Assembly: GCA_043817235.1 (NCBI GenBank)
Contig: JBDRHA010000006.1
Location: 10,041 to 74,040, forward strand
Source of the DNA: Candidatus Shapirobacteria bacterium
GTDB lineage: Bacteria > Patescibacteriota > Microgenomatia > UBA12405 > BS750m-G30
Direction of reading: 5' to 3'
Length of the DNA stretch: 64,000 bases
Each line of letters starts with the position of its first letter. The stretch's first letter is position 1. Under the pieces are notes generated by a model, which was not told the DNA's origin, searched no databases, and saw nothing but the letters and a program-made list of their open reading frames with translations. Positions 4,746 through 62,764 of this stretch are shown one piece after another. The position numbers and the translations under genes are program-made.

Positions 4746-5471
4746 TTATTTAATTTTTTTGCCAAAGATATTATAGATCTCTATTTTCCCGGCGCTTTTA
4801 AAAAAATTTTCTCCTAAATTAGCGGCCTTAATCGTGAATTTTATTTCCTGACCTAAATCAGCCAATTTAGGTTGGCTGAAAAACTCGCTTATTTCTCCTT
4901 TGGCTTCCAGATCAGCGGTTTGGGAAACTGTAATTAAAATATTACTGCCGATCTGGCCGGCCAAGCCGGGCTGCGCCTGCTGCTCGGAGAAGCTCACTTC
5001 AGGGATTTGCTGAATAAAAAACGTCGCATAATAATCTTTTTGGGGAAGATCCAAAGGCGCAGTAATTTTCAAAACCAGCTGCTGGCTTTGGTTAGGCTCC
5101 AGAACAAAAGTATCGCCCAAATTTATATTAGCGTTATTAAGTTTAAACTCGGGAAGACCCGTAAAAATATCCGGTTCTTGATATGTAATTTGGCCCTCCT
5201 TCGCCAAGGCTTCGGAGGGTAGAAAAAACCTAATTTCAGTTTGTAAATAGAGCAGGGAAGTGCCTAGGTTTTTTACCTCATAAGCTTGGGTGATGCTTTT
5301 TCCCGGCTGCAAGACAACTTCCAAAAGAGGAGGGGAAAGGGAGAGGGAGAAGCTCTGACCAGCGGCGAGGCAAGCCCTGTTTCCCCTGGCCGCTATAAAG
5401 GATATAACGGTTATAACGATTATAATTTTTATAGCGGCCAACAGGAAAAAAAGGACCAAGAGAGCAAGAGA
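4746..5471 (-). CDS. surface protein B2 ectodomain, paralog of 2058-3008. It has no start codon of its own and is read through in frame from the upstream four-helix-bundle ORF.
   Basis: Signal-peptide-like LALLVLFFLLAAIKIIIVITVISFIAA, then LLEVVLQPGKSITQAYEVKNLG..., comparable to LIKLTAIPPRLEISANPGDVVVDQLKVRNEG of B1. The ORF caller fuses it to 5520-6299. Confidence 0.45.
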   Translation of the reverse strand, partial: SLALLVLFFLLAAIKIIIVITVISFIAARGNRACLAAGQSFSLSLSPPLLEVVLQPGKSITQAYEVKNLGTSLLYLQTEIRFFLPSEALAKEGQITYQEPDIFTGLPEFKLNNANINLGDTFVLEPNQSQQLVLKITAPLDLPQKDYYATFFIQQIPEVSFSEQQAQPGLAGQIGSNILITVSQTADLEAKGEISEFFSQPKLADLGQEIKFTIKAANLGENFFKSAGKIEIYNIFGKKIK

Positions 5472-5519
5472 GGCGGTGCCCGCCTCTCGGCGGTAATTTA
5501 GCCGCTTTTTGAGGAGGTT

Positions 5520-6020
5520 TTCTCGAAAACCCCCATTTTTAACAAAGTCCTCCTCCAGCCAGCGCAGTTTTTGGTCTAAAAGCTGGTTTGTCTGGTTAAT
5601 TAGGCAGATCATGGTGTTGGCTGCGGTTTCTCCGCTGCTCTGGTATTTTTTATAATCGTTATAATTTTTATAACGCTTATATACCAAAGCTCTAACAGCT
5701 TTGGCGCTCGGATCGTCTTTAGCCCAAATTTTCAGCTTTTTTTGACGCAAAAAGTCTTGGTAGTCGTTGAGAAGCTCTTCTAAAGAAGCGCGGGCAACGG
5801 CTAAGAGATTGAGTTTGAGCGCACTACTTTTTTGCAAGTATCCTTCGGCGATGTTCTGTTTGCCGGAGCGTGCGGCCTGAATAAGCTGATCGCTTTGCCG
5901 TGAGAAGTTCTTATAACTTTTATGACGGTTATAATTTTTATAAGGGCCAGAAAAACATTTATCTATGTATTTCTCGCAAAACTCCACCGTAAAATCGTGG
6001 ATTATTTCTGCCTGCTGGAA
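5520..6020 (-). CDS. four-helix-bundle protein (TIGR02436-like; the 23S rRNA intervening-sequence protein family). N-terminus unresolved; the upstream part of the ORF, to 6299, is MITE-derived.
   Basis: SDQLIQAARSGKQNIAEGYLQKSSALKLNLLAVARASLEELLNDYQDFL matches the family hallmark Q..R.a.Si..NIAEG...s.......l.iA.gSl.El (from memory). Tyr/Asn-rich 9-bp repeats lie at both ends. Confidence 0.5.
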
Positions 6021-6039
6021 AAATGGAAGAGAGCGATAC

Positions 6040-6250
6040 CCTCCTTCGCTAAAGCTACGGCGGGCAGGCCCTCCTTCGCGGGCAAGCCCTCCTCTGTCAT
6101 TGCGAGGAGTCCCGATGCTTCTTTTAGTCACCGGGACGACGTGGCAATCCCGTTTTGAGATTGCTTCAGTTTCGTTCGCAATGACATTTTTGTTAACCCC
6201 TGTTGCTGCGGTGTGGTTCGGGTCACGCCCGGTGTGTGATTTATCTTCTT
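6040..6250. repeat. MITE-like repeat cluster embedded in frame in the 5' part of the 4746-6299 ORF
   Basis: tgtcattgcgaggagtcccgatgc ... gtggcaatcccgtttt ... gttcgcaatgacattt, plus the ggtgtggttcgggtcacgcccggtgtgtg hairpin. Confidence 0.75.
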
Positions 6251-6298
6251 TCTGGTCCCTATAACGATTATAATGGTTATAACTGTTATATCCCGTCA

Positions 6299-7072
6299 TC
6301 AGTACCCCGGAACAGCAATATAAGTAATGGCATTTTCATAGTTTCCGGCGGCCTGGGATCCGCTGATATTAACTTTATAAGTAACTGTTGCGGTTGAGGA
6401 GGAAGTGACGGCATCAGAGCTCATCACGATTTGAGCACTTTCCGCGCCTTCTTGGTCAGCAAACTGGCGAAAAAAAGTAGAATCTTCAAAATCTTCCGGA
6501 ATATCATCGCCGCTGATTTTAAAGCCAAAGCCGTAAATAGAATCATTTATCCAGGGATCAGCGTCTGTTTCATCGCAAGAAAGTGTGTCACAAGTAGTAT
6601 CAACTATATCATTGGCTTGCTCAGAGCGGAGCGGATGGTTTTCAAAAGCCAGAACTTGGTACCCGCCGGCGCCACCAGCCGATACATTTAAAGTATTGGT
6701 GTCTGTCGAGGGGGTGCCGGGGACTAGTGAGCCAAAAGCAATGCTTAAATCGGAAATTGTAAAAGTAAAGGGAATAATAGAATGAATATACTGGAACCCG
6801 GCTCTCAGCCAATAGCCGTCGGACTGATAATCGCCGGGGGCAATCTGGCCAATAGTGTCGGTTAGGTTATAGCTGTCGGAGGATTTTTCTCCGCCGCCGA
6901 TGTTCACGTTTCCGCCCTGAATTTTATAGCTATCGGAATCCATATTGGCCGCGTTCACCCTCCGATTCGGAAGGCTCACCCTCCGGATTGGAGGGCTGGC
7001 TGCTATAAAAGATATAATCATTATAATAGTTATAATTTTTATAGCGGCCAACAAGAAATGAAGGCGGGTCAC
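6299..7072 (-). CDS. secreted protein A2, a shorter paralog of A1 (3038-4450)
   Basis: N-terminal MTRLHFLLAAIKIITIIMIISFIAA is encoded by the 57-bp repeat at 7002-7058. The C-terminal domain aligns with the A1 C-terminus. Confidence 0.5.
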   Translation of the reverse strand: MTRLHFLLAAIKIITIIMIISFIAASPPIRRVSLPNRRVNAANMDSDSYKIQGGNVNIGGGEKSSDSYNLTDTIGQIAPGDYQSDGYWLRAGFQYIHSIIPFTFTISDLSIAFGSLVPGTPSTDTNTLNVSAGGAGGYQVLAFENHPLRSEQANDIVDTTCDTLSCDETDADPWINDSIYGFGFKISGDDIPEDFEDSTFFRQFADQEGAESAQIVMSSDAVTSSSTATVTYKVNISGSQAAGNYENAITYIAVPGY

Positions 7073-9699: not shown

Positions 9700-10571
9700 T
9701 TGTTTTTTTACTGCTGGGGTTAATTATTTTATTTTGCCTCCAAAGGCCGGATAAGAATTTTCATGTTGTTTTTTGTGATGTGGGAGAAGGGGACGCGATT
9801 TTATTGATCCAAAAGAATAATCAGATTTTAGTAGACGGTGGACCGGGTTCTTCTGTTTTGAAGTGTTTGAGTAATAATGTCCCTTTTTGGGATCGGAAGC
9901 TAGAAGCAGTTCTCTTAACCCATCCGGACGCTGATCATTATTCCGGCTTAATTGAAGTTTTAAAAAGATACAAAATAGAAAATTTTTTTGCTCCGCCTTT
10001 AGGTCAAAAAAACGATCTGTCTTTTAAAAAACTTATTTCTTTGTTAATTGATCAAAAAATTACTCCACAAGCTTTAACTCAAGGAGATAAAATTAGAGTT
10101 GGTTTGATTGATTTTGATATTTTTTGGCCGACTAAAAATAAACTAAAAGAACTAGAGACATTTCAAGATATCTCTAGTTTTCAAAACGGCTTTTGGTTAA
10201 TAAGTGAGAGCTTGGTTAACAATAATGAGTTTTCTTTGGTTGCTCGAGCTACTTTCGACCAATTTGATCTATTGTTAACCGGTGACTTGCCAAGTAACTT
10301 AAGCCAAACTTTAGCCTGGCAAAATAAACTGCCCCAAGTAGAGATATTAAAGGCCAGCCATCATGGATCGGGAGCAGATAACCCGGATGAGCTCTATGAT
10401 AAGACTAACCCCAAGCTGGTGGCTATCAGTGTGGGCGAAAATAATTATGGTCACCCAGGTAAAGAGCTTTTGGAAAAACTCAAAAAACTGAATATTCCCG
10501 CCAAAAGAACCGATGAAAAAGGGGACATTGAGATTATTTCGGACGGAAAGTCTTGGTGGGTGGCCGACTAG
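9633..10571 (+). CDS. comEC: ComEC C-terminal metallo-beta-lactamase domain, either frameshifted relative to 8530-9699 or a genuinely separate polypeptide
   Basis: HVVFCDVGEGDAILLIQ...VDGGPG...LLTHPDADHYSGL...LKASHHGS are MBL motifs typical of the ComEC C-terminus. 67-nt overlap with the preceding ORF in a different frame. Confidence 0.75.
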   Translation: MVFGNNLLFDFVLYFWMEKKRLVVFLLLGLIILFCLQRPDKNFHVVFCDVGEGDAILLIQKNNQILVDGGPGSSVLKCLSNNVPFWDRKLEAVLLTHPDADHYSGLIEVLKRYKIENFFAPPLGQKNDLSFKKLISLLIDQKITPQALTQGDKIRVGLIDFDIFWPTKNKLKELETFQDISSFQNGFWLISESLVNNNEFSLVARATFDQFDLLLTGDLPSNLSQTLAWQNKLPQVEILKASHHGSGADNPDELYDKTNPKLVAISVGENNYGHPGKELLEKLKKLNIPAKRTDEKGDIEIISDGKSWWVAD

Positions 10572-10852
10572 CAAAAAATCACACACTCGGTGTGAATTCG
10601 AACCACACCGGGCGTGTGGGAAGCGGGGTGTCGTCGCGAGAGGTGTTCAGTGTCATTGCGGGGCTCGCAATGACAGTCCAAATAGTCATCCCGAGCGCAG
10701 TCGAGGGATCTTTTGAACCAGAAAAAAGGTCGGTTAGTTTCCAAAGATTCCTCGGCTACGCCCCGCAGTTGCGGGGCTGCGCTCGGAATGACACTGAAAA
10801 CAGATTCCCGATCAGGTTGAGAATGACAAAGGAGGTCAGAGTGAGGCTGTAA
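10572..10852. repeat. MITE-like palindromic repeat cluster
   Basis: cacactcggtgtgaattcgaaccacaccgggcgtgtg hairpin, gtcattgcggggctcgcaatgaca, gtcatcccgagcgcagtcgagggatctttt and cgccccgcagttgcggggctgcgctcggaatgacac. Confidence 0.8.
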
Positions 10853-10905
10853 TGACAAAAACCCTGACAATAACATTTCGATTTTAAGACCTTATTTGTC
10901 AAAAT

Positions 10906-12051: not shown

Positions 12052-12345
12052 AGTGTCATTGTGAAGGGCGTTGCCATCCCCGCGAAGGCGGGGTTCTCGT
12101 TATTCCCGCGCAGGCCGAGAGTCTCTGTCATCCCTGCGCAGGCGGGGATCTATGAAATAATCATATAGATTCCCGATCAGGTCGGGAATGACAAAGAGGA
12201 TGTCATCCCGAGCGCAGTCGAGGGATCTTTTGAACCAGAAAAAAGGTCGGTTAGTTTCCAAAGATTCCTCGGCTGCGCCCCGCGATTCGCGGGGCTGCGC
12301 TCGGAATGACACTGAAAACAGATTCCCAATCAGGTTGAGAACGAT
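12052..12345. repeat. MITE-like palindromic repeat cluster
   Basis: gccatccccgcgaaggcggggttc, gtcatccctgcgcaggcggggatc, gtcatcccgagcgcagtcgagggatctttt and cgccccgcgattcgcggggctgcgctcggaatgacac. Confidence 0.8.
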
Positions 12346-18927: not shown

Positions 18928-19307
18928 TAATCGACACGAGTATTGTTATAGATCATCTTCGACAGAAAACTAAAATTAGATCTTATTTAGTAAAACTCGT
19001 CGAAAAACATCCTAAAAACGAACTAGCAATATCAGTTCTGAGTGTTCAAGAGCTATATGAAGGCAGGAGCACGAGGGATGTAAATCAGGAAAAAATACTT
19101 TTGGCGACAATAAGTCCCTTAAGAATCTTGCCCTATAATTATGAAACAGCTAAAATGGCGGGAGAAATAGCGCGTGACTTGGCGGAAACGATTCAATTTG
19201 CAGATGCGGCAATTGCGGCGACAGCCATCGTTAACGGTGGGCAATTAGCCACTTTAAATAAGAAAGATTTTCAGAAAATACGAGATTTAGATTTTTTTAA
19301 TTTTTAA
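18921..19307 (+). CDS. vapC: PIN-domain toxin VapC
   Basis: MVVIDTSIVIDHL...SVQELYEG...FADAAIAATAIVNGGQLATLNKKDFQKI. Confidence 0.75.
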   Translation: MVVIDTSIVIDHLRQKTKIRSYLVKLVEKHPKNELAISVLSVQELYEGRSTRDVNQEKILLATISPLRILPYNYETAKMAGEIARDLAETIQFADAAIAATAIVNGGQLATLNKKDFQKIRDLDFFNF

Positions 19308-22300
19308 ACTTTCAGCTTTTTGGATTTTTTGCCCTCCGGTTTTGAGCAAAATCTCTTTTTCAAACTCCTTTGGCCAGGAAGGAGCAAAAATAATTATTTT
19401 ATCGGTTAATTCTAAATTTTCTTTTCTTCGCAGCGTCTGGACTTCTCTAATTAAATCGCGCGCTTTACCCTCTTTTTTTAATTCTGGGGTTAATTTTGTA
19501 TTGAGCTTTATGCTTTTAGCTAATTTTATTTTTTTAATATTCAGCTCATCTAAAAGAAGATAGTCGATATTTAGCTTCTTAAAAAAGGAAGCGTTTGGCG
19601 AATACAAGGCGGAAAGCGGTTGCTTGACGGCAATATTTTTTGCTTTGCGCAAGGCATGACCTTCGGTAACTTCGTTTCTTAATTGAGCCATTGCTTTTTC
19701 TAAATCCAAATTTAAATATTTCTTTTCTATTTTTGGCCAAGACTGGAGATGAATGGAGTCTTTAACTTTTAATTTATTTTTATTTCCCTGAAGGTTCTGC
19801 CAGACGGTTTCCGGCAAAAAAGGAATAAAGATACCCAAAAGCAAGGAAAGCTGCTCCAGGCAATGATAGAGGGTGCTAAAACAAGCTTCGCGGTCCCTCG
19901 TGTTTTGGCTGTTGGGCGAGAGCCGCTCGCGGGAGCGGCGCACATACCAAAGGGAAAGATCTTCTATAAAGTTTTCTAAGCTTTTTAAGGCGTTTTGATG
20001 ACGAAAACGATTCAGTTCGCCTTGGGCCTCTTTTTTGGTGTTTTCCAGCCGAGAGAGAATCCAAGCGTCAAGCGGGCTAGTGTCATTGCGAGGAGTCGCT
20101 GAGGAGGCGTGGAAATCCAGTTTCCGTGTCATTGCGAGGATCGGAGCGACGTGGCAATCTTTCCAACGGGATCGCCACGCCCCCGACGTCACGTCGTGGG
20201 ACTCGCGATGACAAGGACACCAGCCATTTAAATTCGCATAAGTAGCTAAAAAGCGAAAAGAGTTCCAATAAAGGAAAATAAATCTTCGCCTGATTTCATC
20301 GGCAATAGAATAGCCAAAATTAAGGCCAAGATGGGGCCTTTGCCGGCAGTATAGCCAGCGCATCGTGTCTACTCCCATTTTTTCGACAGCCTCATCATAA
20401 GGAATGCCGTTTTTCTTGGTCTTGCTCATTCGCTCGCCTTTTTCGTCGCGCACTTCGCCGTGGTTAAGAACACTCTTGTATGGAGCCATATTTTCAAAAA
20501 TTACTCCGTAAACGAGCATCGAATAAAACCAGAGCCGGATTTGCTCAATCATTTCCAAAACTAAGTCAGCCGGGAACCACTTTTGCCAGTATTTTTTGTC
20601 TTCAAAATATTTTAAGGTAGAAAAAGGAACGACGCCTGCGTCCAGCCAGCAATCGCCCACGTCCAAAATTCGGTTTACGGGCTTACCGCACTGGGGGCAT
20701 TTGATTTTAATTTCATCAACCCAGGGTCGGTGCAAAGAGGGGAGTTTGTCGACTAAATTTTGGTTTACTGCCAATTTTTTTAGTTCTTTTTTAGAGCCGA
20801 TTACGGTTAGTTTTTTGCACTTAAGGCATTCATAAAAAGGCAAAGATAAGCCGTAAAAGCGCTTGCGGCTGATCATCCAGTCTCCCATATTATTGAGCCA
20901 GCCCTGCATTCTTTTTCCGGCAAATTTCGGAATCCAGTTGGCCGTGGCCGCGGCCTTTTTTAGCTCGGGCTTGATTTTGGTGCAATTAATAAACCAATTT
21001 TCTTCTAAGCGAAATAAAGTTTTTGCGCCGCACCGCCAGCAGTGGGGGTAAGAATGGGTAATGGTTTCCGTTTTATAAAGTAGATTTTTGTCTTTTAAAT
21101 AGTTAATTACTTCTTTTCCCACTTCGTGGGCGTATTTATTAGTTAAACTACCGTAGCCCGGGCCAAATTGGCCGGCTTCCGTTAAAGGAGAAAGAGCGGG
21201 TGCGCCCAAGCTTTTTCCCAGGAGAAAATCGTCTTCTCCACAGCCCGGAGCAATATGAACGATTCCGGTTCCTTCATCTGGATTAGCCAGCTTCCATTTT
21301 ACGACAGAATGCTTAATATTTTTTTGAGCGGGAATATCATAAAGCGATTCGTATTCTTGACCTAATAAATCTTTGGCGGCAACGGAGATTTGGTTTTTCA
21401 AGCCCAAGCGGTCGGCCGACTCTTTAGCCAAATACCAGTATTCGACTCCGCTGTCATCCCGAGCGTAGTCGAGGGATCTTCTTTTTTTTGTCATTGCGAG
21501 CGTAGCGAAGCAATCCCGAGTGGAATCTGTAATTTCAACGGGATCGCCATGTCCCGCAGCTGCGGGACTCGCGATGACACGATTCTTCGCGACGACACGG
21601 ACTTTCACATACTCATATTCTGGATTGATCGCCAAAAGGACGTTAGCAGATAAAGTCCAGGGGGTTGTAGTCCAGGCTAAGAAATACTCATTCTTTTTAT
21701 TTTTTAAAGGGAATTTAACATGAACGGAAAAATCTTGAATATCTTTATAGCCTTCGGCCTGTTCATGGCGGGATAAACCGGTTTCGCACCTCGGGCACCA
21801 GGTGGTGGCGGATTTTGCCTTATAAAGTAATTCTTTTTGGCGGCAGATTTGCAAAAATTTCCAAATATATAAATTATTAGTTTCCGAATAAGTATAATAG
21901 GAATTATCCCAATCCATAAAATAGCCCAAGCGCTTGGACTGCTCGGCTTGCAAGGCAGCATAAGTTTTGACCCGGTCTTGGCATGATTGGGTAAATTTAG
22001 CTAAACCATATTTTTCAATATCTTTTTTGGAATTAAAGCCTAAGGCTTTTTCCACCTCTACTTCAACCCAAAGTCCCTGGCAGTCAAACCCGTTTTGAAA
22101 TCTTTGCTGATAGCCTTGGGCGTTTTTGTATTTTTGATAAAGGTCTTTTAAGGTTCGGCCCCAGGCATGGTGCGCACCCATGGGGTTATTGGCAGTAATT
22201 GGGCCGTCAATAAAAGAAAAGCGCTTTTTAGAATTTTTATTTTTGGCTAAATATTTTTCAAGCAAGCCGTTTTTTTCCCAAAACTTAAGAATCTTTTTTT

Positions 22301-22370
22301 CGTTTTGAACAAAATCAAATTGAGCTTCGGGTAAAGCAAAATAATTTTCTTTCTTTTTCTTAGTTTTCAT
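19287..22370 (-). CDS. ileS: isoleucyl-tRNA synthetase carrying two in-frame MITE insertions
   Basis: HxGH-type motif NPMGAHHAWG; KMSKS-like ERMSKTKKNG; Zn-finger-like WCPRCETGL; CP1 editing region. The ORF is continuous across repeats at 20084-20222 and 21437-21600. Confidence 0.95.
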   Translation of the reverse strand: MKTKKKKENYFALPEAQFDFVQNEKKILKFWEKNGLLEKYLAKNKNSKKRFSFIDGPITANNPMGAHHAWGRTLKDLYQKYKNAQGYQQRFQNGFDCQGLWVEVEVEKALGFNSKKDIEKYGLAKFTQSCQDRVKTYAALQAEQSKRLGYFMDWDNSYYTYSETNNLYIWKFLQICRQKELLYKAKSATTWCPRCETGLSRHEQAEGYKDIQDFSVHVKFPLKNKKNEYFLAWTTTPWTLSANVLLAINPEYEYVKVRVVAKNRVIASPAAAGHGDPVEITDSTRDCFATLAMTKKRRSLDYARDDSGVEYWYLAKESADRLGLKNQISVAAKDLLGQEYESLYDIPAQKNIKHSVVKWKLANPDEGTGIVHIAPGCGEDDFLLGKSLGAPALSPLTEAGQFGPGYGSLTNKYAHEVGKEVINYLKDKNLLYKTETITHSYPHCWRCGAKTLFRLEENWFINCTKIKPELKKAAATANWIPKFAGKRMQGWLNNMGDWMISRKRFYGLSLPFYECLKCKKLTVIGSKKELKKLAVNQNLVDKLPSLHRPWVDEIKIKCPQCGKPVNRILDVGDCWLDAGVVPFSTLKYFEDKKYWQKWFPADLVLEMIEQIRLWFYSMLVYGVIFENMAPYKSVLNHGEVRDEKGERMSKTKKNGIPYDEAVEKMGVDTMRWLYCRQRPHLGLNFGYSIADEIRRRFIFLYWNSFRFLATYANLNGWCPCHRESHDVTSGAWRSRWKDCHVAPILAMTRKLDFHASSATPRNDTSPLDAWILSRLENTKKEAQGELNRFRHQNALKSLENFIEDLSLWYVRRSRERLSPNSQNTRDREACFSTLYHCLEQLSLLLGIFIPFLPETVWQNLQGNKNKLKVKDSIHLQSWPKIEKKYLNLDLEKAMAQLRNEVTEGHALRKAKNIAVKQPLSALYSPNASFFKKLNIDYLLLDELNIKKIKLAKSIKLNTKLTPELKKEGKARDLIREVQTLRRKENLELTDKIIIFAPSWPKEFEKEILLKTGGQKIQKAESLKIKKI
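20084..20222. repeat. MITE pair inserted in frame in ileS (encodes ...CPCHRESHDVTSGAWRSRWKDCHVAPILAMTRKLDFHASSATPRNDTSPLDA...)
   Basis: gtcattgcgaggagtcgc ... gtcattgcgaggatcggagcgacgtggcaatcttt ... cgtgggactcgcgatgaca. The host frame is not broken. Confidence 0.85.
21437..21600. repeat. MITE pair inserted in frame in ileS (encodes ...ASPAAAGHGDPVEITDSTRDCFATLAMTKKRRSLDYARDDSG...)
   Basis: gtcatcccgagcgtagtcgagggatc, gtcattgcgagcgtagcgaagcaatcc and cccgcagctgcgggactcgcgatgaca. Confidence 0.85.
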
Positions 22371-36836: not shown

Positions 36837-37068
36837 GTGGGGGTTGATAGTCATCCCGAGTGCATCCCGAGGGATCTTTGGAATTAAGAAATCTCTCCTT
36901 TAACAAGATCCCTCGGGATGCACTCGGGATGACGAGAAACATGTCATTGCGAGCCCCAAAGGGGCGTGGCAATCTTGCTTTCCCAATGGGATTGCCGCGT
37001 CAGTCGCTTCGCTTCCTTCCTGGCAATGACACTCTTTCTGTCATCCTCGTGAAGGCGAAGGATCTATA
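36837..37068. repeat. MITE-like repeat cluster
   Basis: gtcatcccgagtgcatcccgagggatcttt, its inverted partner, and the full element tgtcattgcgagccccaaaggggcgtggcaatcttgc...cctggcaatgaca. Confidence 0.8.
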
Positions 37069-39669: not shown

Positions 39670-40320
39670 ATGCTAGTTTTAGGCTTGGGCAATCCGGAAA
39701 AAGAATATCAAGATAATCGCCATAATACGGGCAAGCAGTTTTTAGACTTTTTAGACCAAAATAACGAATTAAATTGGCAAAAAAGAAAAGACTTGCTTTG
39801 TTTTTTGGCCAAGAAAGATGATTTATATTTGGCCAAATCTCTAACTTATATGAATGATTCGGGTCAAGCTGCTCAGGCTTTAGTAAAAAAATTAAAAGTA
39901 AAATTAAATAATTTTTATTTAGCTCATGATGAGCTGGATTTAAAATTAGGGGAGTATAAAATTAGCTTTGGCAAAAGTTCGGCTCTTCATAAAGGAGTTT
40001 TATCAGTAGAGCGGGAGCTAAAAAGTAAAGATTTCTGGCGCGTTAGGATTGGGGTAGATAATCGCGATTCAGAAAACCGGATTGCGGGGGAAAGATATGT
40101 TTTGCAGGATTTTCGATCAGAGGAAGAAAAAAAGCTAAAAAAAGTATTTGAGGAAATCATTGTGTCATTGCGGGGGTATTGTCATCCTGAGCGAAGTCGA
40201 AGGATCTTTCCGAAGATTCCTCGATCCCGCAGCTGCGGGACTCAAGATGACTATTTAAACTGTCATTCCGAGCGCAGCCCCGCTACTGCGGGGCGTAGCC
40301 GAGGGATCTTTGAGAATTAA
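39670..40320 (+). CDS. pth: peptidyl-tRNA hydrolase with about 45-aa C-terminal extension encoded by MITE repeats
   Basis: MLVLGLGNPEKEYQDNRHNTGKQFLD is the Pth N-terminal signature with catalytic His. Residues after about 170 (GYCHPERSRRIFPKIPRSRSCGTQDDYLNCHSERSPATAGRSRGIFEN) are the translation of the repeat units at 40168-40317. Confidence 0.9.
   Translation: MLVLGLGNPEKEYQDNRHNTGKQFLDFLDQNNELNWQKRKDLLCFLAKKDDLYLAKSLTYMNDSGQAAQALVKKLKVKLNNFYLAHDELDLKLGEYKISFGKSSALHKGVLSVERELKSKDFWRVRIGVDNRDSENRIAGERYVLQDFRSEEEKKLKKVFEEIIVSLRGYCHPERSRRIFPKIPRSRSCGTQDDYLNCHSERSPATAGRSRGIFEN
40168..40317. repeat. MITE-like repeats forming the 3' end of pth
   Basis: gtcatcctgagcgaagtcgaaggatcttt, cccgcagctgcgggactcaagatgac and tgtcattccgagcgcagccccgctactgcggggcgtagccgagggatctttg. 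Confidence 0.8.
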
Positions 40321-40353
40321 GTAGGGATTTCCCTCTGGTAAAATTATTATTAA

Positions 40354-40644
40354 ATGCAAAAACAGTTCTTTGTTTATATCTTAAGCAATTTCAAAAGAAA
40401 CGTTCTTTGCATTGGGGTTACCAGTAATTTAAGGAAAAGGGTTTGGGAACACAGGCAAGATTTAGTTCAAGGATTTACCAAAAAATATCAAGTTCATGAC
40501 CTGCTCTATTACGAAGTGTTTACTGATTCTATGCTGGCGATTGCCAGAGAAAAACAGCTAAAAAAATGGAACAGAAGAAAGAAAAATGCCTTAATTGCGA
40601 CGACCAATCCTAAACTTAAAGATCTTTATTCAATAATTTCTTAG
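40354..40644 (+). CDS. GIY-YIG nuclease superfamily protein (UPF0213-like small standalone GIY-YIG)
   Basis: FFVYILSNFKRNVLCIGVTSNLRKRVWEH contains the GIY/YIG motifs and the conserved Arg and Glu. 96 aa. Confidence 0.8.
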   Translation: MQKQFFVYILSNFKRNVLCIGVTSNLRKRVWEHRQDLVQGFTKKYQVHDLLYYEVFTDSMLAIAREKQLKKWNRRKKNALIATTNPKLKDLYSIIS

Positions 40645-40790
40645 ATTGACAAAAGATCTTTCGACTTCGCTCGGGATGACAGGAAACAATGTCATTCCGA
40701 GCATAGTCGAGGAATCTTTGGCGATTAAGCGAAGTATTTTTCTGATTTACGAAAGATCCTTCGGCTACGCTCAGGATGACTTATGGATCA
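40641..40790. repeat. MITE-like repeat cluster
   Basis: ctttcgacttcgctcgggatgaca, tgtcattccgagcatagtcgaggaatcttt and ccttcggctacgctcaggatgac. Confidence 0.8.
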
Positions 40791-41783
40791 ACTAACCTGA
40801 TTTTCTGTCTTGTTTGCCAAAAAGGAGCGAATATTTTCATAAGTAGTTTGAATAATGCGTTTTATAGCCTCTTTGCTGTTAAAGGCATTGTGCGGGGTGA
40901 TAATCACGTTCGGCATTTCTCTTAGCAGGTGAACCGCGACTAATTCTTTTAAATCATCATTAGAAATATAGCGAGAAAATAAAGCGGACGGATCATCTAA
41001 AATTTCTTCTTCCTCTAAAACGTCCAAGCCTGCCCCTCTCAAAATCTTTTGTTCTAGAGCCCATAAAATTGCTTCGGTTTCCACGACCGGGCCGCGGGCG
41101 GTGTTGATAAGCAAACTTCCTTTTTTCATTCTTTTAATATTTTGCTTATTTATTAAGTGATGAGTGGCTTTACAGTAGGGAACATGCAAGGAGATAATAT
41201 CTGACTCTTTTAAGCACAGCTCAAGGGGAACACGCTGATAGCCAAGCTTTTTTTCCAGTTTGGGGTGGCCCTCGTTGGTTACTCCCAGGACTTTCATCTC
41301 AAAGGCCTTGGCATAGCGCGTCATCCATTGGCCAATCTTTCCAACGCCTACCACTCCCAATATTTTCCCTTTTAAGTCAAAGCCGGTTAAGCCATTAGGT
41401 GAAAACCCACCTTGCCTGACTCTTTCCGAGCCTTCCACGATACGGCGGGATAAGGCCAAAATTAAAGCAAAAGTATGCTCGGCGACCGTATTTTCGCCAT
41501 AAGAAGGAACGTTGCAAACTATGATTTTGTTTTTTTGGCAATATTCAAGGTCAATATGATCAAATCCGGTGGAACGGGTAGCAATCATTTTTAAAGCGGG
41601 TAGTTTTTTTAAGATTTTGGCCGATAGATCAGAGTAAATAAAAGTGGAAATAATTTCATACTCGGCTGCGGTTTTTAAATCTTCTTCTACTTCAGAAGGA
41701 TAAATATCTGCTTTTAGCTTTTTGGCAAAAGAAGGCAAAACCTCTTTTTCCCATTCTTTTAATTCAAAAAAGGCAATTTTCAT
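40788..41783 (-). CDS. D-isomer-specific 2-hydroxyacid dehydrogenase (NAD-binding Rossmann enzyme)
   Basis: GKILGVVGVGKIGQWMTRYAKAFEMKVLG dinucleotide-binding motif; catalytic R/E/H context (NTARGPVVETEAIL...PHNA). Confidence 0.8.
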   Translation of the reverse strand: MKIAFFELKEWEKEVLPSFAKKLKADIYPSEVEEDLKTAAEYEIISTFIYSDLSAKILKKLPALKMIATRSTGFDHIDLEYCQKNKIIVCNVPSYGENTVAEHTFALILALSRRIVEGSERVRQGGFSPNGLTGFDLKGKILGVVGVGKIGQWMTRYAKAFEMKVLGVTNEGHPKLEKKLGYQRVPLELCLKESDIISLHVPYCKATHHLINKQNIKRMKKGSLLINTARGPVVETEAILWALEQKILRGAGLDVLEEEEILDDPSALFSRYISNDDLKELVAVHLLREMPNVIITPHNAFNSKEAIKRIIQTTYENIRSFLANKTENQVS

Positions 41784-43307: not shown

Positions 43308-43560
43308 TAGTCATTCCGAGCTTCGAGACCAGTGTCATTGCGAGTCCCGATGGTTCTGTTAGCCATCGGGGCGCGGCAATCCCGCTGGGATTACGGGTTA
43401 CGCACGGGATCGTTCCGCTACGCTCAGGATGGCGATTTAAACTGTCATTCCGAGCGCAGCCCCGCAGTAGCGGGGCGCAGTCGAGGAATCTTTGGCAATT
43501 AAGCGAAGTATTTCTCTGATTTACGAAAGACCCTTCGGCTACGCTCAGGATGACGATCTC
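43308..43560. repeat. MITE-like repeat cluster
   Basis: gtcattccgagcttcgagacc, tgtcattgcgagtcccgatggttc...ggcgcggcaatcccgctgggatta, tgtcattccgagcgcagccccgcagtagcggggcgcagtcgaggaatcttt and ccttcggctacgctcaggatgacga. Confidence 0.8.
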
Positions 43561-45347: not shown

Positions 45348-45600
45348 GAAATTCCCAGAGTCATTCCGAGCGAAGTCCCGAGTACTCGGGACGAAGTCGA
45401 GGAATCTTTAGGAGTAAAAAGATCCTTCGGCTGCGCCCCGTGAATCGCGGGGCTGCGCTCAGGATGACAGGAAACAATGTCATTGCGAGCCCCGCAGCTG
45501 CGGGGGAAGTAATCCCAGGCGGAATATGCAATCCCGTTGGATAGATTGCTTCGTTAGTCACTAGCGTTTCTTCCTCGCAATGACAAAGGAGGTTGAGATT
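45348..45600. repeat. MITE-like repeat cluster including a full 113-bp element with perfect 12-bp TIRs (45476-45590)
   Basis: tgtcattgcgagccccgcagctgcggggg ... ttcctcgcaatgaca; also gtcattccgagcgaagtcccgagtactcgggacgaagtcgaggaatcttt. Confidence 0.85.
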
Positions 45601-52746: not shown

Positions 52747-53414
52747 TGGAAAAAAATCTAAAAAGTTTTTTAAATCAGTATTTTGCTCTTGAAATAATCC
52801 CCGGCAAAAAAATTCGTATTCCTTATTGGCGCAATAAATTTCCCCCTTGGGGCGGAAGAATTCAGGGGCCATATGGGGGCAAGGGAATGCCGGCTCAAAT
52901 CAAAAGAATTACCCTGAAAAAAGCCAAGCAGGCCAGGATTAATTTGACGGATTTAAATTCCGATCAAATTCGTAACTTTATGAAGCAGAAAAAGATTGGG
53001 GTTGAATGTTCCGGCTTTACTTTTCAAGTTCTAAATTTTTTAAAACCGGGGTTTTACAAGCACTTGAAAAAAGCGCCGGGAATAAGCCCTAATCCGATCA
53101 GGAGATTTAATGCGGCTGCTCTCACTTCAGCAGAAAACAGCCGCCCAATAAAAAAAGTAAAAGAAATTCAAGTAGGAGATTTAATCGCCGCCAGCTTTGA
53201 GAAGAACATTATTGATCATGTTTTAATAATTGTTGATATTTCTAAAAAGGAAATTATTTATGCTCATTCTTCCAGTCAAACCCCCACTTCCGGCCCGCAT
53301 CTGGGCAAGCTAAAGATAGCCAACCCGAGCGCCAGCCCCCAAGAGCTTAAATTTGTCGAAAAAACCAAGAGGCCTTTGAAGATTTTAGGAATAAGAAGGA
53401 TCGAGGGGCAGTAA
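52746..53414 (+). CDS. hypothetical protein, possibly NlpC/P60-like papain-fold hydrolase; overlaps rplA stop (ATGA)
   Basis: Candidate catalytic Cys in ECSGFTFQVLNFL and His in NIIDHVLIIVDISKKEIIYAHSS. Assignment is tentative. Confidence 0.35.
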   Translation: MEKNLKSFLNQYFALEIIPGKKIRIPYWRNKFPPWGGRIQGPYGGKGMPAQIKRITLKKAKQARINLTDLNSDQIRNFMKQKKIGVECSGFTFQVLNFLKPGFYKHLKKAPGISPNPIRRFNAAALTSAENSRPIKKVKEIQVGDLIAASFEKNIIDHVLIIVDISKKEIIYAHSSSQTPTSGPHLGKLKIANPSASPQELKFVEKTKRPLKILGIRRIEGQ

Positions 53415-53457
53415 AAGCTAAAGGAGGTCTTTGTCGTTCCCGACTTAATCGGGTTTC

Positions 53458-53662
53458 CCTTGTCATTCCGAGCGCAGCCCCGCCGTTGCGGGGCGTAGTC
53501 GAGGAATCTTTTGGGGAATTAACCAAACACCGCTTGGACAAGAAAGATCCCTCGACTGCGCTCGGGATGACCATTTGAACTGTCATTGCGTGGCAATCTT
53601 GCTTTTCCGACGGGATCGCTGCGCCCCCGACGTGACGTCGGGGGACTCGCGATGACATTTAA
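53458..53662. repeat. MITE-like repeat cluster
   Basis: tgtcattccgagcgcagccccgccgttgcggggcgtagtcgaggaatctttt, ccctcgactgcgctcgggatgac and the full element tgtcattgcgtggcaatcttgc...gggactcgcgatgaca. Confidence 0.8.
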
Positions 53663-62102: not shown

Positions 62103-62290
62103 GCCCAACTAGTCATTCCGAGCGAGTCAAGATAGAAAGATCCTTCGGCTATGCTCAGGATGACTATTTAATCTGTCATTCCGAGCGAAGCCCCGCGATT
62201 CGCGGGGCGCAGTCGAGGAATCTTCGGAAAAATCCTTCGATCCCGCCGGTGCGGGGCTCGCAATGACAATAGGTGCGGTATTATTGAGTT
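62103..62290. repeat. MITE-like repeat cluster
   Basis: gtcattccgagcgagtcaagatagaaagatccttcggctatgctcaggatgac, tgtcattccgagcgaagccccgcgattcgcggggcgcagtcgaggaatctt and gatcccgccggtgcggggctcgcaatgaca. Confidence 0.8.
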
Positions 62291-62325: not shown

Positions 62326-62396
62326 TAGGCCCGTGGTGAAATGGCTATCATCAACGTCTCCAACCCCGCAGCTGCGGGGCGAGTCCTGGAAGGGCC
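62326..62396 (+). pseudogene. disrupted copy of tRNA-Trp: the first 38 nt are identical to the intact gene, then a MITE-core palindrome CCCCGCAGCTGCGGGG replaces the middle
   Basis: aggcccgtggtgaaatggctatcatcaacgtctccaa is identical to 62665-62701. It is followed by ccccgcagctgcggggcgagtcctggaagggcc, which keeps only T-loop/acceptor-like remnants. Confidence 0.55.
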
Positions 62397-62408
62397 TTTT
62401 AGATTAAA

Positions 62409-62666
62409 ATGTTTTACGTTTATGTCTTGTTGAGTATAAAAGACAAGAATATTTATACTGGGCTTACCTCTAATTTGCTGGCTAGACTAACCGAACATAA
62501 AGAAGGTTTAGTGAGGTCAACCAGAAGCAGAAGACCGGTAAAATTGATATACTATGAGGCTTATTTATCTAAGGTAGACGCTTTACGCAGAGAAAAATAT
62601 TTAAAATTGGGCGGCAAAGCCAAGACGACTTTAAAAAAACAAATACAAGAATCTTTATTATTTTAG
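62409..62666 (+). CDS. GIY-YIG nuclease superfamily protein (second copy; 85 aa)
   Basis: MFYVYVLLSIKDKNIYTGLTSNLLARLTEHKEG...KLIYYEAYLSKVDALRREKYLK. The TAG stop overlaps the 5' end of tRNA-Trp. Confidence 0.8.
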   Translation: MFYVYVLLSIKDKNIYTGLTSNLLARLTEHKEGLVRSTRSRRPVKLIYYEAYLSKVDALRREKYLKLGGKAKTTLKKQIQESLLF

Positions 62667-62736
62667 GCCCGTGGTGAAATGGCTATCATCAACGTCTCCA
62701 AAACGTTGGTTTCAGGTTCGAGTCCTGACGGGCCTG
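62665..62736 (+). tRNA. tRNA-Trp (anticodon CCA)
   Basis: AGGCCCG-TG-GTGA-AATGGCTA-TCAT-C-AACGT-CTCCAAA-ACGTT-GGTT-TCAGG-TTCGAGT-CCTGA-CGGGCCT-G. Good acceptor, anticodon and T arms. Confidence 0.75.
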
Positions 62737-62764
62737 CCGCGATTTTGAATGCTATAATTATTCT

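Follow-up and report, generated by a model that had tools for sequence, protein, structure and literature searches.

How did the gene for peptidyl-tRNA hydrolase (Pth) in a Candidatus Shapirobacteria contig come to end in repeat sequence, and does the resulting tail matter to the enzyme? In the 64-kb stretch of contig JBDRHA010000006.1 that was analysed (hereafter the window), the open reading frame (ORF) 39670..40320 on the plus strand encodes 216 aa and its translation ends in ...GYCHPERSRRIFPKIPRSRSCGTQDDYLNCHSERSPATAGRSRGIFEN. We propose, with a probability of about 0.85, that a block of palindromic repeat units carrying the gene of a small GIY-YIG nuclease of the Ssn type was inserted at the overlapping ends of pth and a convergent 2-hydroxyacid dehydrogenase gene, and that it replaced the end of Pth with a near-neutral tail.

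The identity of the enzyme is supported by two profiles, Pfam PF01195 (Pept_tRNA_hydro; E 4.9e-43, 147.5 bits with a cut-off of 27, residues 2-168) and TIGR00447 (E 1.2e-43, 148.9 bits with a cut-off of 100). The PF01195 match spans profile positions 1-168 of 183 and the native end of the domain is absent. In a 24-sequence alignment, query included, the window protein retains 32 of the 32 invariant columns, which indicates that the catalytic core is intact; these include N8, H18 and D90, which we take to be the equivalents of the active-site Asn, His and Asp of the E. coli enzyme (N10, H20 and D93). The catalytic core and invariant residues are thus those of canonical bacterial Pth (PF01195; E. 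coli-type, about 190 aa), from which the relatives in this clade differ by being naturally short (155-185 aa), while in the window copy 53 unrelated residues stand in place of the last few of theirs. No second pth copy was found in the window. Effects of an alternative genetic code on the end of the protein were considered and rejected, as the ORF stops at TAA; Microgenomates use the standard genetic code. A Pth identical to that of the window is on record once, as an 'aminoacyl-tRNA hydrolase' encoded on a 146.7-kb contig of a metagenome-assembled genome (MAG) of Candidatus Shapirobacteria, a lineage within the Microgenomates group of Patescibacteria.

In a collection of 5.8 billion proteins, the nearest Pth sequences (P0002-P0015) are 54-66% identical to the query, are 168-184 aa long and cover about 75% of it. 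The original prediction, made from the letters of the window, held that the tail was acquired from repeat units, and the lengths of close relatives bear this out: in an alignment of the 23 closest, all end 3-12 residues past the column of query residue ~170, and no aligned ortholog carries the tail or a homologous extension of non-repeat origin. An ancestral functional extension of Pth was accordingly rejected, the orthologs being without the tail. A search of genome contigs with Pth yielded just distant relatives, at no more than 45% identity. Uninterrupted loci, referred to as empty sites, were obtained by exact-protein look-ups and belong to three relatives whose Pth is 61-66% identical to that of the window: P0002 (loci L081-L084), P0006 (L085) and P0005 (L086). 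At all of these loci pth is directly followed by a convergent gene for a 331-aa 2-hydroxyacid dehydrogenase, the same gene, of the same length, as at 40788..41783 in the window, and the core of the repeat family is absent. The two genes overlap at their 3′ ends by 68 nt in L081-L084, 33 nt in L085 and 32 nt in L086:

L081, 4488-4555, convergent: 3′ overlap of pth and the dehydrogenase gene
L085, 4487-4519, convergent: the same overlap
L086, 2136-2167, convergent: the same overlap

In the more distant relatives L087 and L089, pth has other neighbours. The frame in which pth runs through the overlap is the same in L081 and L086 and different in L085, and the relatives' Pth ends vary (168-184 aa). 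Because it is read in different frames among relatives, the native C-terminus of Pth in this clade is an unconstrained stretch, overprinted on the 3′ end of the dehydrogenase gene.

A MAFFT alignment of window positions 40080-40880 with the three empty sites opens one 631-column gap in all three relatives, opposite window positions 40156-40786, and removal of 40160-40790 restores a gapless match to L081 (76 of 110 positions identical). The features at this locus are as follows (asterisks in translations are stops):

39670..40159, plus strand: native part of pth (residues 1-163 and the first base of codon 164), matching PF01195 and TIGR00447; 40159 is the last position with DNA homology to L081, L085 and L086
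40156..40159, no strand: left ATCA at the insertion junction, where the relatives have a single ATTA
40159..40320, plus strand: insert-encoded Pth tail, residues 164-216 (53 aa), with its stop TAA at 40318-40320
40160..40786, no strand: inserted mosaic of 627 bp, absent from the three relatives, delimited by the single MAFFT gap and the reconstruction
40787..40790, no strand: right ATCA, whose last three bases (TCA) read TGA on the minus strand and form the stop codon of the dehydrogenase gene
40788..41783, minus strand: gene of the convergent 331-aa 2-hydroxyacid dehydrogenase, undamaged by the insertion (Pfam 2-Hacid_dh_C, E 7.8e-53; length and type of C-terminus as in the relatives)
40791..40846, plus strand: displaced ancestral 3′ end of pth, N*PDFLSCLPKRSEYFHK*, whose two stops are TAA (40793-40795) and TAG (40844-40846); it matches the P0002 C-terminus SQPDFPACRLKRPEYFDRWFE in frame and without gaps

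Without the insert, the pth frame reads ...EEIN*PDFLSCLPKRSEYFHK* against ...KEISQPDFPACRLKRPEYFDRWFE* in P0002, and the C-terminus of the dehydrogenase (...NKTENQVS*) is colinear with the ...GKPENLVG* of the relatives. The single-gap alignment and the gapless reconstruction therefore indicate that the 627-bp block entered just outside the dehydrogenase stop codon and inside pth codon 164, that residues 1-163 are native and residues 164-216 (53 aa) foreign, and that the ancestral 3′ end survives beyond the block. This establishes the insertion and its boundaries, as well as a tail of repeat origin that is absent from relatives. A boundary between core and tail exists, as had been predicted, but it falls at residues 163/164, where homology stops at nt 40159, rather than near residue 170, and the foreign tail is 53 rather than ~45 residues long. 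The proposal that the original pth stop was displaced by repeat insertion is upheld by the three empty sites, the single gap and the reconstruction, and the ancestral stop can be sought in the displaced 3′ end still readable at 40791-40846: it was either the TAA at 40793-40795, giving a Pth of 165 aa, or, should this TAA be of later origin, the TAG at 40844-40846, giving about 182 aa. Copies of ATCA flank both ends of the 627-bp composite, a single event to judge from, and this pair may represent a target-site duplication rather than microhomology.

The insert consists of six repeat units and the 96-aa GIY-YIG gene. The frame had been described as running through three repeat strings to a stop, and these strings are in place (gtcatcctgagcgaagtcgaaggatc at 40181-40206, cccgcagctgcgggactcaagatgac at 40226-40251, and tgtcattccgagcg...gagggatctttg at 40261-40312), with the tail as predicted from them. 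Leaving aside the nuclease gene, the insert reads:

40163..40176, plus strand: half of a second-type terminus (TGTCATTGCGGGGG), which encodes part of ...VSLRG and has the same start as the GTCATTGCGAG termini at 10662, 16788, 21490 and elsewhere
40180..40209, plus strand: unit 1, TGTCATCCTGAGCGAAGTCGAAGGATCTTT, whose 26-mer is found identically beside a homologous GIY-YIG gene in L094
40213..40252, minus strand: unit 2, inverted, with an inner GC hairpin CCCGCAGCTGCGGG at 40226-40239
40252-40260: linker TATTTAAAC, 9 nt
40261..40311, plus strand: unit 3, left arm of the GIY-YIG cassette (inverted repeat I3), with an inner hairpin CCCCGCTACTGCGGGG at 40278-40293
40318-40320, plus strand: present stop of pth (TAA), in the interior of the cassette and 6 nt beyond unit 3
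40652..40681, minus strand: unit 4, closing the GIY-YIG cassette on the right (inverted repeat I1: 93% complementary to unit 1 over 30 nt)
40682-40689: linker between units 4 and 5
40690-40719, plus strand: unit 5, which with unit 6 forms a second complete palindromic element (40690..40781; inverted repeats I2 and I3)
40752-40781, minus strand: unit 6
40781-40786: TTATGG, right edge of the insert

Units 1 and 2 form a 72-bp palindromic pair (40180-40252) that folds at -18.2 kcal/mol (z -4.3), a value reached by none of 200 shuffles. Lying between units 3 and 4, the GIY-YIG gene occupies the 'loop' of an element, and the unit 5/6 element is near-identical to one at 43444-43554. The tail had been ascribed to three units of a miniature inverted-repeat transposable element (MITE); its repeat origin stands, but the count gives way to one complete palindromic pair (40180-40252) and the left arm of the cassette (40261-40311). 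A promoter and terminator scan of the insert returned nothing above shuffles.

The repeat family is abundant in the window. The 26-mer of unit 1 has 12 matches with up to 3 mismatches (0.00 expected) and a 14-mer core of the repeat has 27 (0.04 expected); paired elements number about 20, measure 53-131 bp and have GTCATYSYGAGCG termini, and a looser scan finds about 50 repeat termini, mainly as inverted pairs 60-130 bp apart. The linkers between units also recur: those resembling TATTTAAAC are found at 40252-40260, 43434-43442 (GATTTAAAC), 62165-62173 (TATTTAATC) and 53572-53580, and those resembling AGGAAACAA at 40682-40689, 45469-45477 and 36934-36941, with AGGAAACAA itself at 45469. By analogy with bacterial interspersed mosaic elements (BIMEs), such recurrence suggests either the copying of whole multi-unit blocks rather than of single units, or site-specific insertion. 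Because its linkers recur at other clusters, the organisation of the insert is best described as a BIME-like mosaic rather than a simple MITE. ORFs of 70-125 aa composed mostly of repeat units lie at 1647-2024, 10568-10876, 12100-12312 and 53347-53658, all on the minus strand; the three that were tested have no Pfam match, and they are likely spurious 'hypothetical proteins' arising from open frames of the units.

Like a MITE, the window family is small and has terminal inverted repeats and many copies. A gene-carrying version with the same arms (40261-40681) is present; the Ssn protein that it encodes would be at most a putative transposase, and none other was detected in the window. With repetitive extragenic palindromic (REP) sequences, BIMEs and their REP-associated tyrosine transposases (RAYTs) it shares units that alternate in orientation, recurrent linkers (TATTTAAAC-like and AGGAAACAA) and a presumed cognate enzyme gene flanked by units; however, the enzyme in the window is of the GIY-YIG and not the HUH type, no RAYT is found in the window and the units have no GTAG-type REP head. 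The term MITE would thus be a loose label for these units, which seem closer to REP/BIME-like Ssn-related motifs and whose transposition is putative.

The gene enclosed by units 3 and 4 connects the repeats with a described system:

40354..40644, plus strand: gene of an Ssn-type nuclease with a single GIY-YIG domain, 96 aa, in which the conserved second Tyr of the GIY-YIG motif is replaced by Cys19 (Pfam PF01541, E 2.7e-13)

The PF01541 match covers residues 5-77 and no other domain is present; the ORF has no solved relative by sequence in the PDB and no NCBIfam match. The Ssn family (cd10448) consists of single-domain GIY-YIG proteins of about 94 aa that bind and cut single-stranded DNA (ssDNA) beside a cognate hairpin repeat (Chenal et al. 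2025, PMC11893778). The repeat, NTS (CGTCATTCCCGCGMAVGCGGGAATCYRG), was generalised in that study to 'Ssn-related motifs' (SRMs), which occur on both sides of the ssn gene and in hundreds of copies, while Patescibacteria are not mentioned in its main text. Family members were recognised there by BLASTP similarity to Neisseria SsnA (E < 1e-10) and SRMs by the pattern HGTCWYN(0-2)YYVSBRHN(0-5)WNVSBRGN(0-2)RNCYNB, searched on both sides within 500 bp. As a reference for SsnA we used a 94-aa ORF of N. gonorrhoeae from a plasmid collection, a proxy for the meningococcal protein; this ortholog is the single match in the N. gonorrhoeae chromosomes of the collection, has Tyr6, Tyr17 and Glu64, which were the residues mutated in the Ssn study, and lies among 12 NTS copies in 1.47 kb. 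The window protein is 46% identical to it over 89 ungapped aa (E 2e-26 pairwise), and the E value of 1e-16 obtained by tblastn on the collection is below the published limit; its 96 aa in a single domain also agree with the size of the family.

Three other genomes have homologs of the gene, each with its own inverted units on both sides. In L091 (57% identical) the flanks are literal NTS/SRMs, in L094 (61% identical) they include the exact 26-mer of unit 1, and in L090 (69% identical) they form a perfect inverted pair of a third variant. In the window, the gene is bracketed by inverted NTS-like units (arms 40261-40311 and 40652-40681), with further pairs on each side. In the window, the published SRM pattern has a single match, at 483-510 (TGTCATCCTCGCGAAGGCGGGGATCTAT), and none in the flanks of the gene; the dominant local unit, GTCATYCCGAGCG-YAG-YCGAGGRATCTT, keeps only the outer GTCAT...GGRATC frame, which has 20 matches against 0.3 at random. 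On the basis of the similarity to SsnA, the neighbourhoods of the homologs and the shared frame, the GIY-YIG gene is assigned to the Ssn family, possibly with a disabled active site, and the units represent a divergent type of SRM. The counterparts of Y6 and E64 are present in the protein as Y8 and E66, and Cys19 (TGT at 40408-40410, in LCIGVT) stands where 19 of 19 homologs and SsnA have Tyr. In SsnA, the Y17A substitution abolished cleavage and preserved binding (PMC11893778). The local copy may be inactive or binding-only, and Cys19 could also stem from a sequencing error.

The window cassette thus shares with the published Ssn/SRM system (PMC11893778) a single-domain GIY-YIG gene bracketed by inverted units with a GTCAT...GGAATC frame, as well as dozens of additional copies scattered near gene ends, and this architecture recurs in other Patescibacteria. 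It differs in that the dominant unit falls outside the published pattern and is not a stable hairpin alone, many units contain a CCCCGCnnnnGCGGGG hairpin in addition, Y17 of the protein is replaced by Cys, the host belongs to the Patescibacteria and units are translated inside genes. Another GIY-YIG gene, a divergent one of 85 aa (62409..62666), has a Pfam match at E 2.5e-15 and shares 36% identity with the SsnA ortholog. On one side of it lies an intact tRNA-Trp (62665-62738); on the other, upstream, the first ~37 nt of that tRNA are repeated (62326-62364) and run into a CCCCGC hairpin. The layout of 62326-62738 suggests that an insertion took place in or next to the tRNA gene and duplicated part of it.

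The alternating orientation of the units and their recurrent linkers, as seen in BIMEs, together with the mutated catalytic Tyr of the local GIY-YIG copy, could instead point to ordinary REP/BIME or MITE repeats moved by a conventional transposase (HUH/RAYT or DDE) encoded elsewhere, with the GIY-YIG gene as a passenger. In L081, a Y1_Tnp gene (IS200/RAYT-type; 5572-6252, minus strand) does follow directly after the dehydrogenase gene. However, none of the repeats occurs in the 8.5 kb of L081, no Y1/RAYT transposase was detected in the window by tblastn, and each homolog from the three other genomes lies between co-varying inverted units of its own, as published for Ssn (PMC11893778). We consider this reading improbable and retain the insertion of an Ssn-type block.

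What the tail does for Pth, if anything, is the second part of the question. The tail has a pI of 9.9, with 9 Arg and 7 Ser, and contains the peptide SCGTQDDYLNCHSER; it is basic because the GC-rich units dictate this composition. An AlphaFold model (predicted template modelling score, pTM, 0.78) is confident through the last helix (residues 150-170), across the junction, and drops below a predicted local distance difference test score (pLDDT) of 50 for residues 187-216, so that the tail is probably disordered. A search of the 5.8 billion proteins with the tail alone returned three word-sharing candidates, none of them significant. From the junction, the three frames run for 9, 32 and 52 further codons, and some tail was therefore near-inevitable; the pth frame is the longest of the three. 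Of the frames in the repeat elements, 40% are open, compared with 27-28% in controls, a modest enrichment. Since no relative carries the tail, disorder is predicted and the C-termini of relatives are unconstrained, the tail is most likely a tolerated, near-neutral by-product and not a new function. The opposite proposal, that this Arg/Ser-rich extension has been exapted for tRNA or ribosome contacts or for regulated turnover and is under selection, could draw on its strongly basic character in an enzyme that binds tRNA, on the use of the longest available frame and on the retention of the repeat family in frame at two places in isoleucyl-tRNA synthetase (IleRS; see below). Against these points, the tail is conserved nowhere, being absent from all relatives and from all other proteins on record, it is predicted to be disordered, its composition is no more than the coding of GC-rich units would give, and the native C-terminus is itself unconstrained in relatives, which makes exaptation very unlikely.

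The history of the locus can then be reconstructed as follows. In the ancestor, pth and the convergent 2-hydroxyacid dehydrogenase gene overlapped at their 3′ ends, so that pth had its last 2-20 codons on the strand antisense to the dehydrogenase C-terminus. A 627-bp mosaic of palindromic units around a 96-aa Ssn-type gene was inserted just outside the dehydrogenase stop and in pth codon 164, and may have arrived in one step or several. The dehydrogenase kept its stop and C-terminus, while Pth lost its natural end and its frame now runs through the half-unit, the 72-bp palindromic pair, the linker of 9 nt and the cassette's left arm up to the TAA. The predicted product joins the intact Pth core (residues 1-163) to 53 residues that are basic and probably disordered. 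Spread of the units would be due to Ssn-type ssDNA nucleases acting at cognate repeats, analogous to REP/BIME with RAYT.

Several observations weigh against parts of this history. The local Ssn copy has Cys at the position where a Tyr-to-Ala mutant loses cleavage, and Ssn-driven mobility was put forward only as a hypothesis even in the source paper (PMC11893778). Single units as ssDNA fold no better than shuffles (z 0 to +1.3), good folding being limited to inverted pairs and inner GC hairpins. The TAA at 40793 may pre- or post-date the insertion, which leaves the ancestral Pth at 165 or ~182 aa, and the nearest relatives, just 61-66% identical, are too distant to show how many insertion events there were or in what order they took place. 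Translation and stability of the tail, like an unaffected Pth activity, are predictions only. Finally, the protein and its contig are on record once, from a MAG, and repeats are prone to assembly error; the order of the units, hence the exact sequence of the tail, rests on a single contig. That the contig is mis-joined or collapsed within the repeats, with the true pth end elsewhere, is nevertheless very unlikely, for although it stems from one MAG contig and six near-identical units at one locus are a classic setting for short-read misassembly, both outer junctions lie in unique sequence and join genes that are neighbours in the same orientation in three relatives, the left, fusion-creating junction lies 20 nt before the first full unit, and a chimera would hardly restore synteny on both sides.

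Insertion of repeats into translated sequence is not confined to Pth. The 1027-aa ORF 19287..22370 on the minus strand encodes IleRS and contains two in-frame inserts of the second-type repeat (GTCATTGCGAG...CTCGCRATGAC):

21453-21578, minus strand: in-frame repeat insert in IleRS, residues ~265-306
20082-20212, minus strand: in-frame repeat insert in IleRS, residues ~720-763

A solved IleRS structure (PDB) aligns in three blocks that skip exactly both stretches, and both inserts are absent from eight metagenomic relatives (45-61% identical, 902-1025 aa); relatives of about 54% identity are too diverged at the DNA level to resolve a target-site duplication at these inserts. As Pth and IleRS both carry them, translated repeats are recurrent in the window. 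In a 517-aa ORF at 4746-6299 (minus strand), which has only a weak 23S_rRNA_IVP match, a repeat pair (cluster 6096-6185) occupies part of the first ~70 codons; its true start may lie downstream of the repeats, or it may be another translated insertion. Fusions of MITEs with ORFs were described as 'not unusual' in a review in which Rickettsia palindromic elements (RPEs) are the extreme case (PMC10969869). RPEs are short palindromic repeats translated in housekeeping proteins (Ogata 2000, as summarised in PMC10969869), to which Pth and IleRS may be compared by analogy. The IleRS inserts are RPE-like in being in frame in a conserved gene and absent from orthologs, a likeness of arrangement. In contrast to RPEs, the Pth case is a read-through after truncation and not an in-frame internal insert, and a candidate cognate nuclease gene sits inside one of the window elements.

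Repeat elements that rewrite gene ends were already known, as were Ssn/SRM systems. What is new is the host lineage, the divergent unit, a filled and empty pair resolved to the base for an ssn-containing block, and the in-frame carriage in IleRS. For Pth itself the insertion has little consequence, and it provides a clean case of a repeat rewriting the dispensable end of an essential enzyme; it also cautions that such tails in MAG annotations are not domains. It is possible, although we regard this broader proposal as doubtful, that Ssn/SRM cassettes are active and self-propagating in Patescibacteria, inserting at or in gene ends, possibly with a 4-bp duplication, with units tolerated in frame in essential translation genes such as those of Pth and IleRS. 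If this were true, they would be a counterpart of RPEs in the candidate phyla radiation, with an identifiable cognate nuclease, and the pth/dehydrogenase locus would be among the first filled/empty-site pairs to document the insertion of a whole SRM-ssn-SRM block. The assignment made here extends the Ssn/SRM system to a lineage of Patescibacteria, with a divergent unit that escapes the published search pattern, and this extension, the empty/filled pair and the carriage in IleRS all bear on the mobility of the Ssn/SRM system and on its tolerance by small-genome symbionts.

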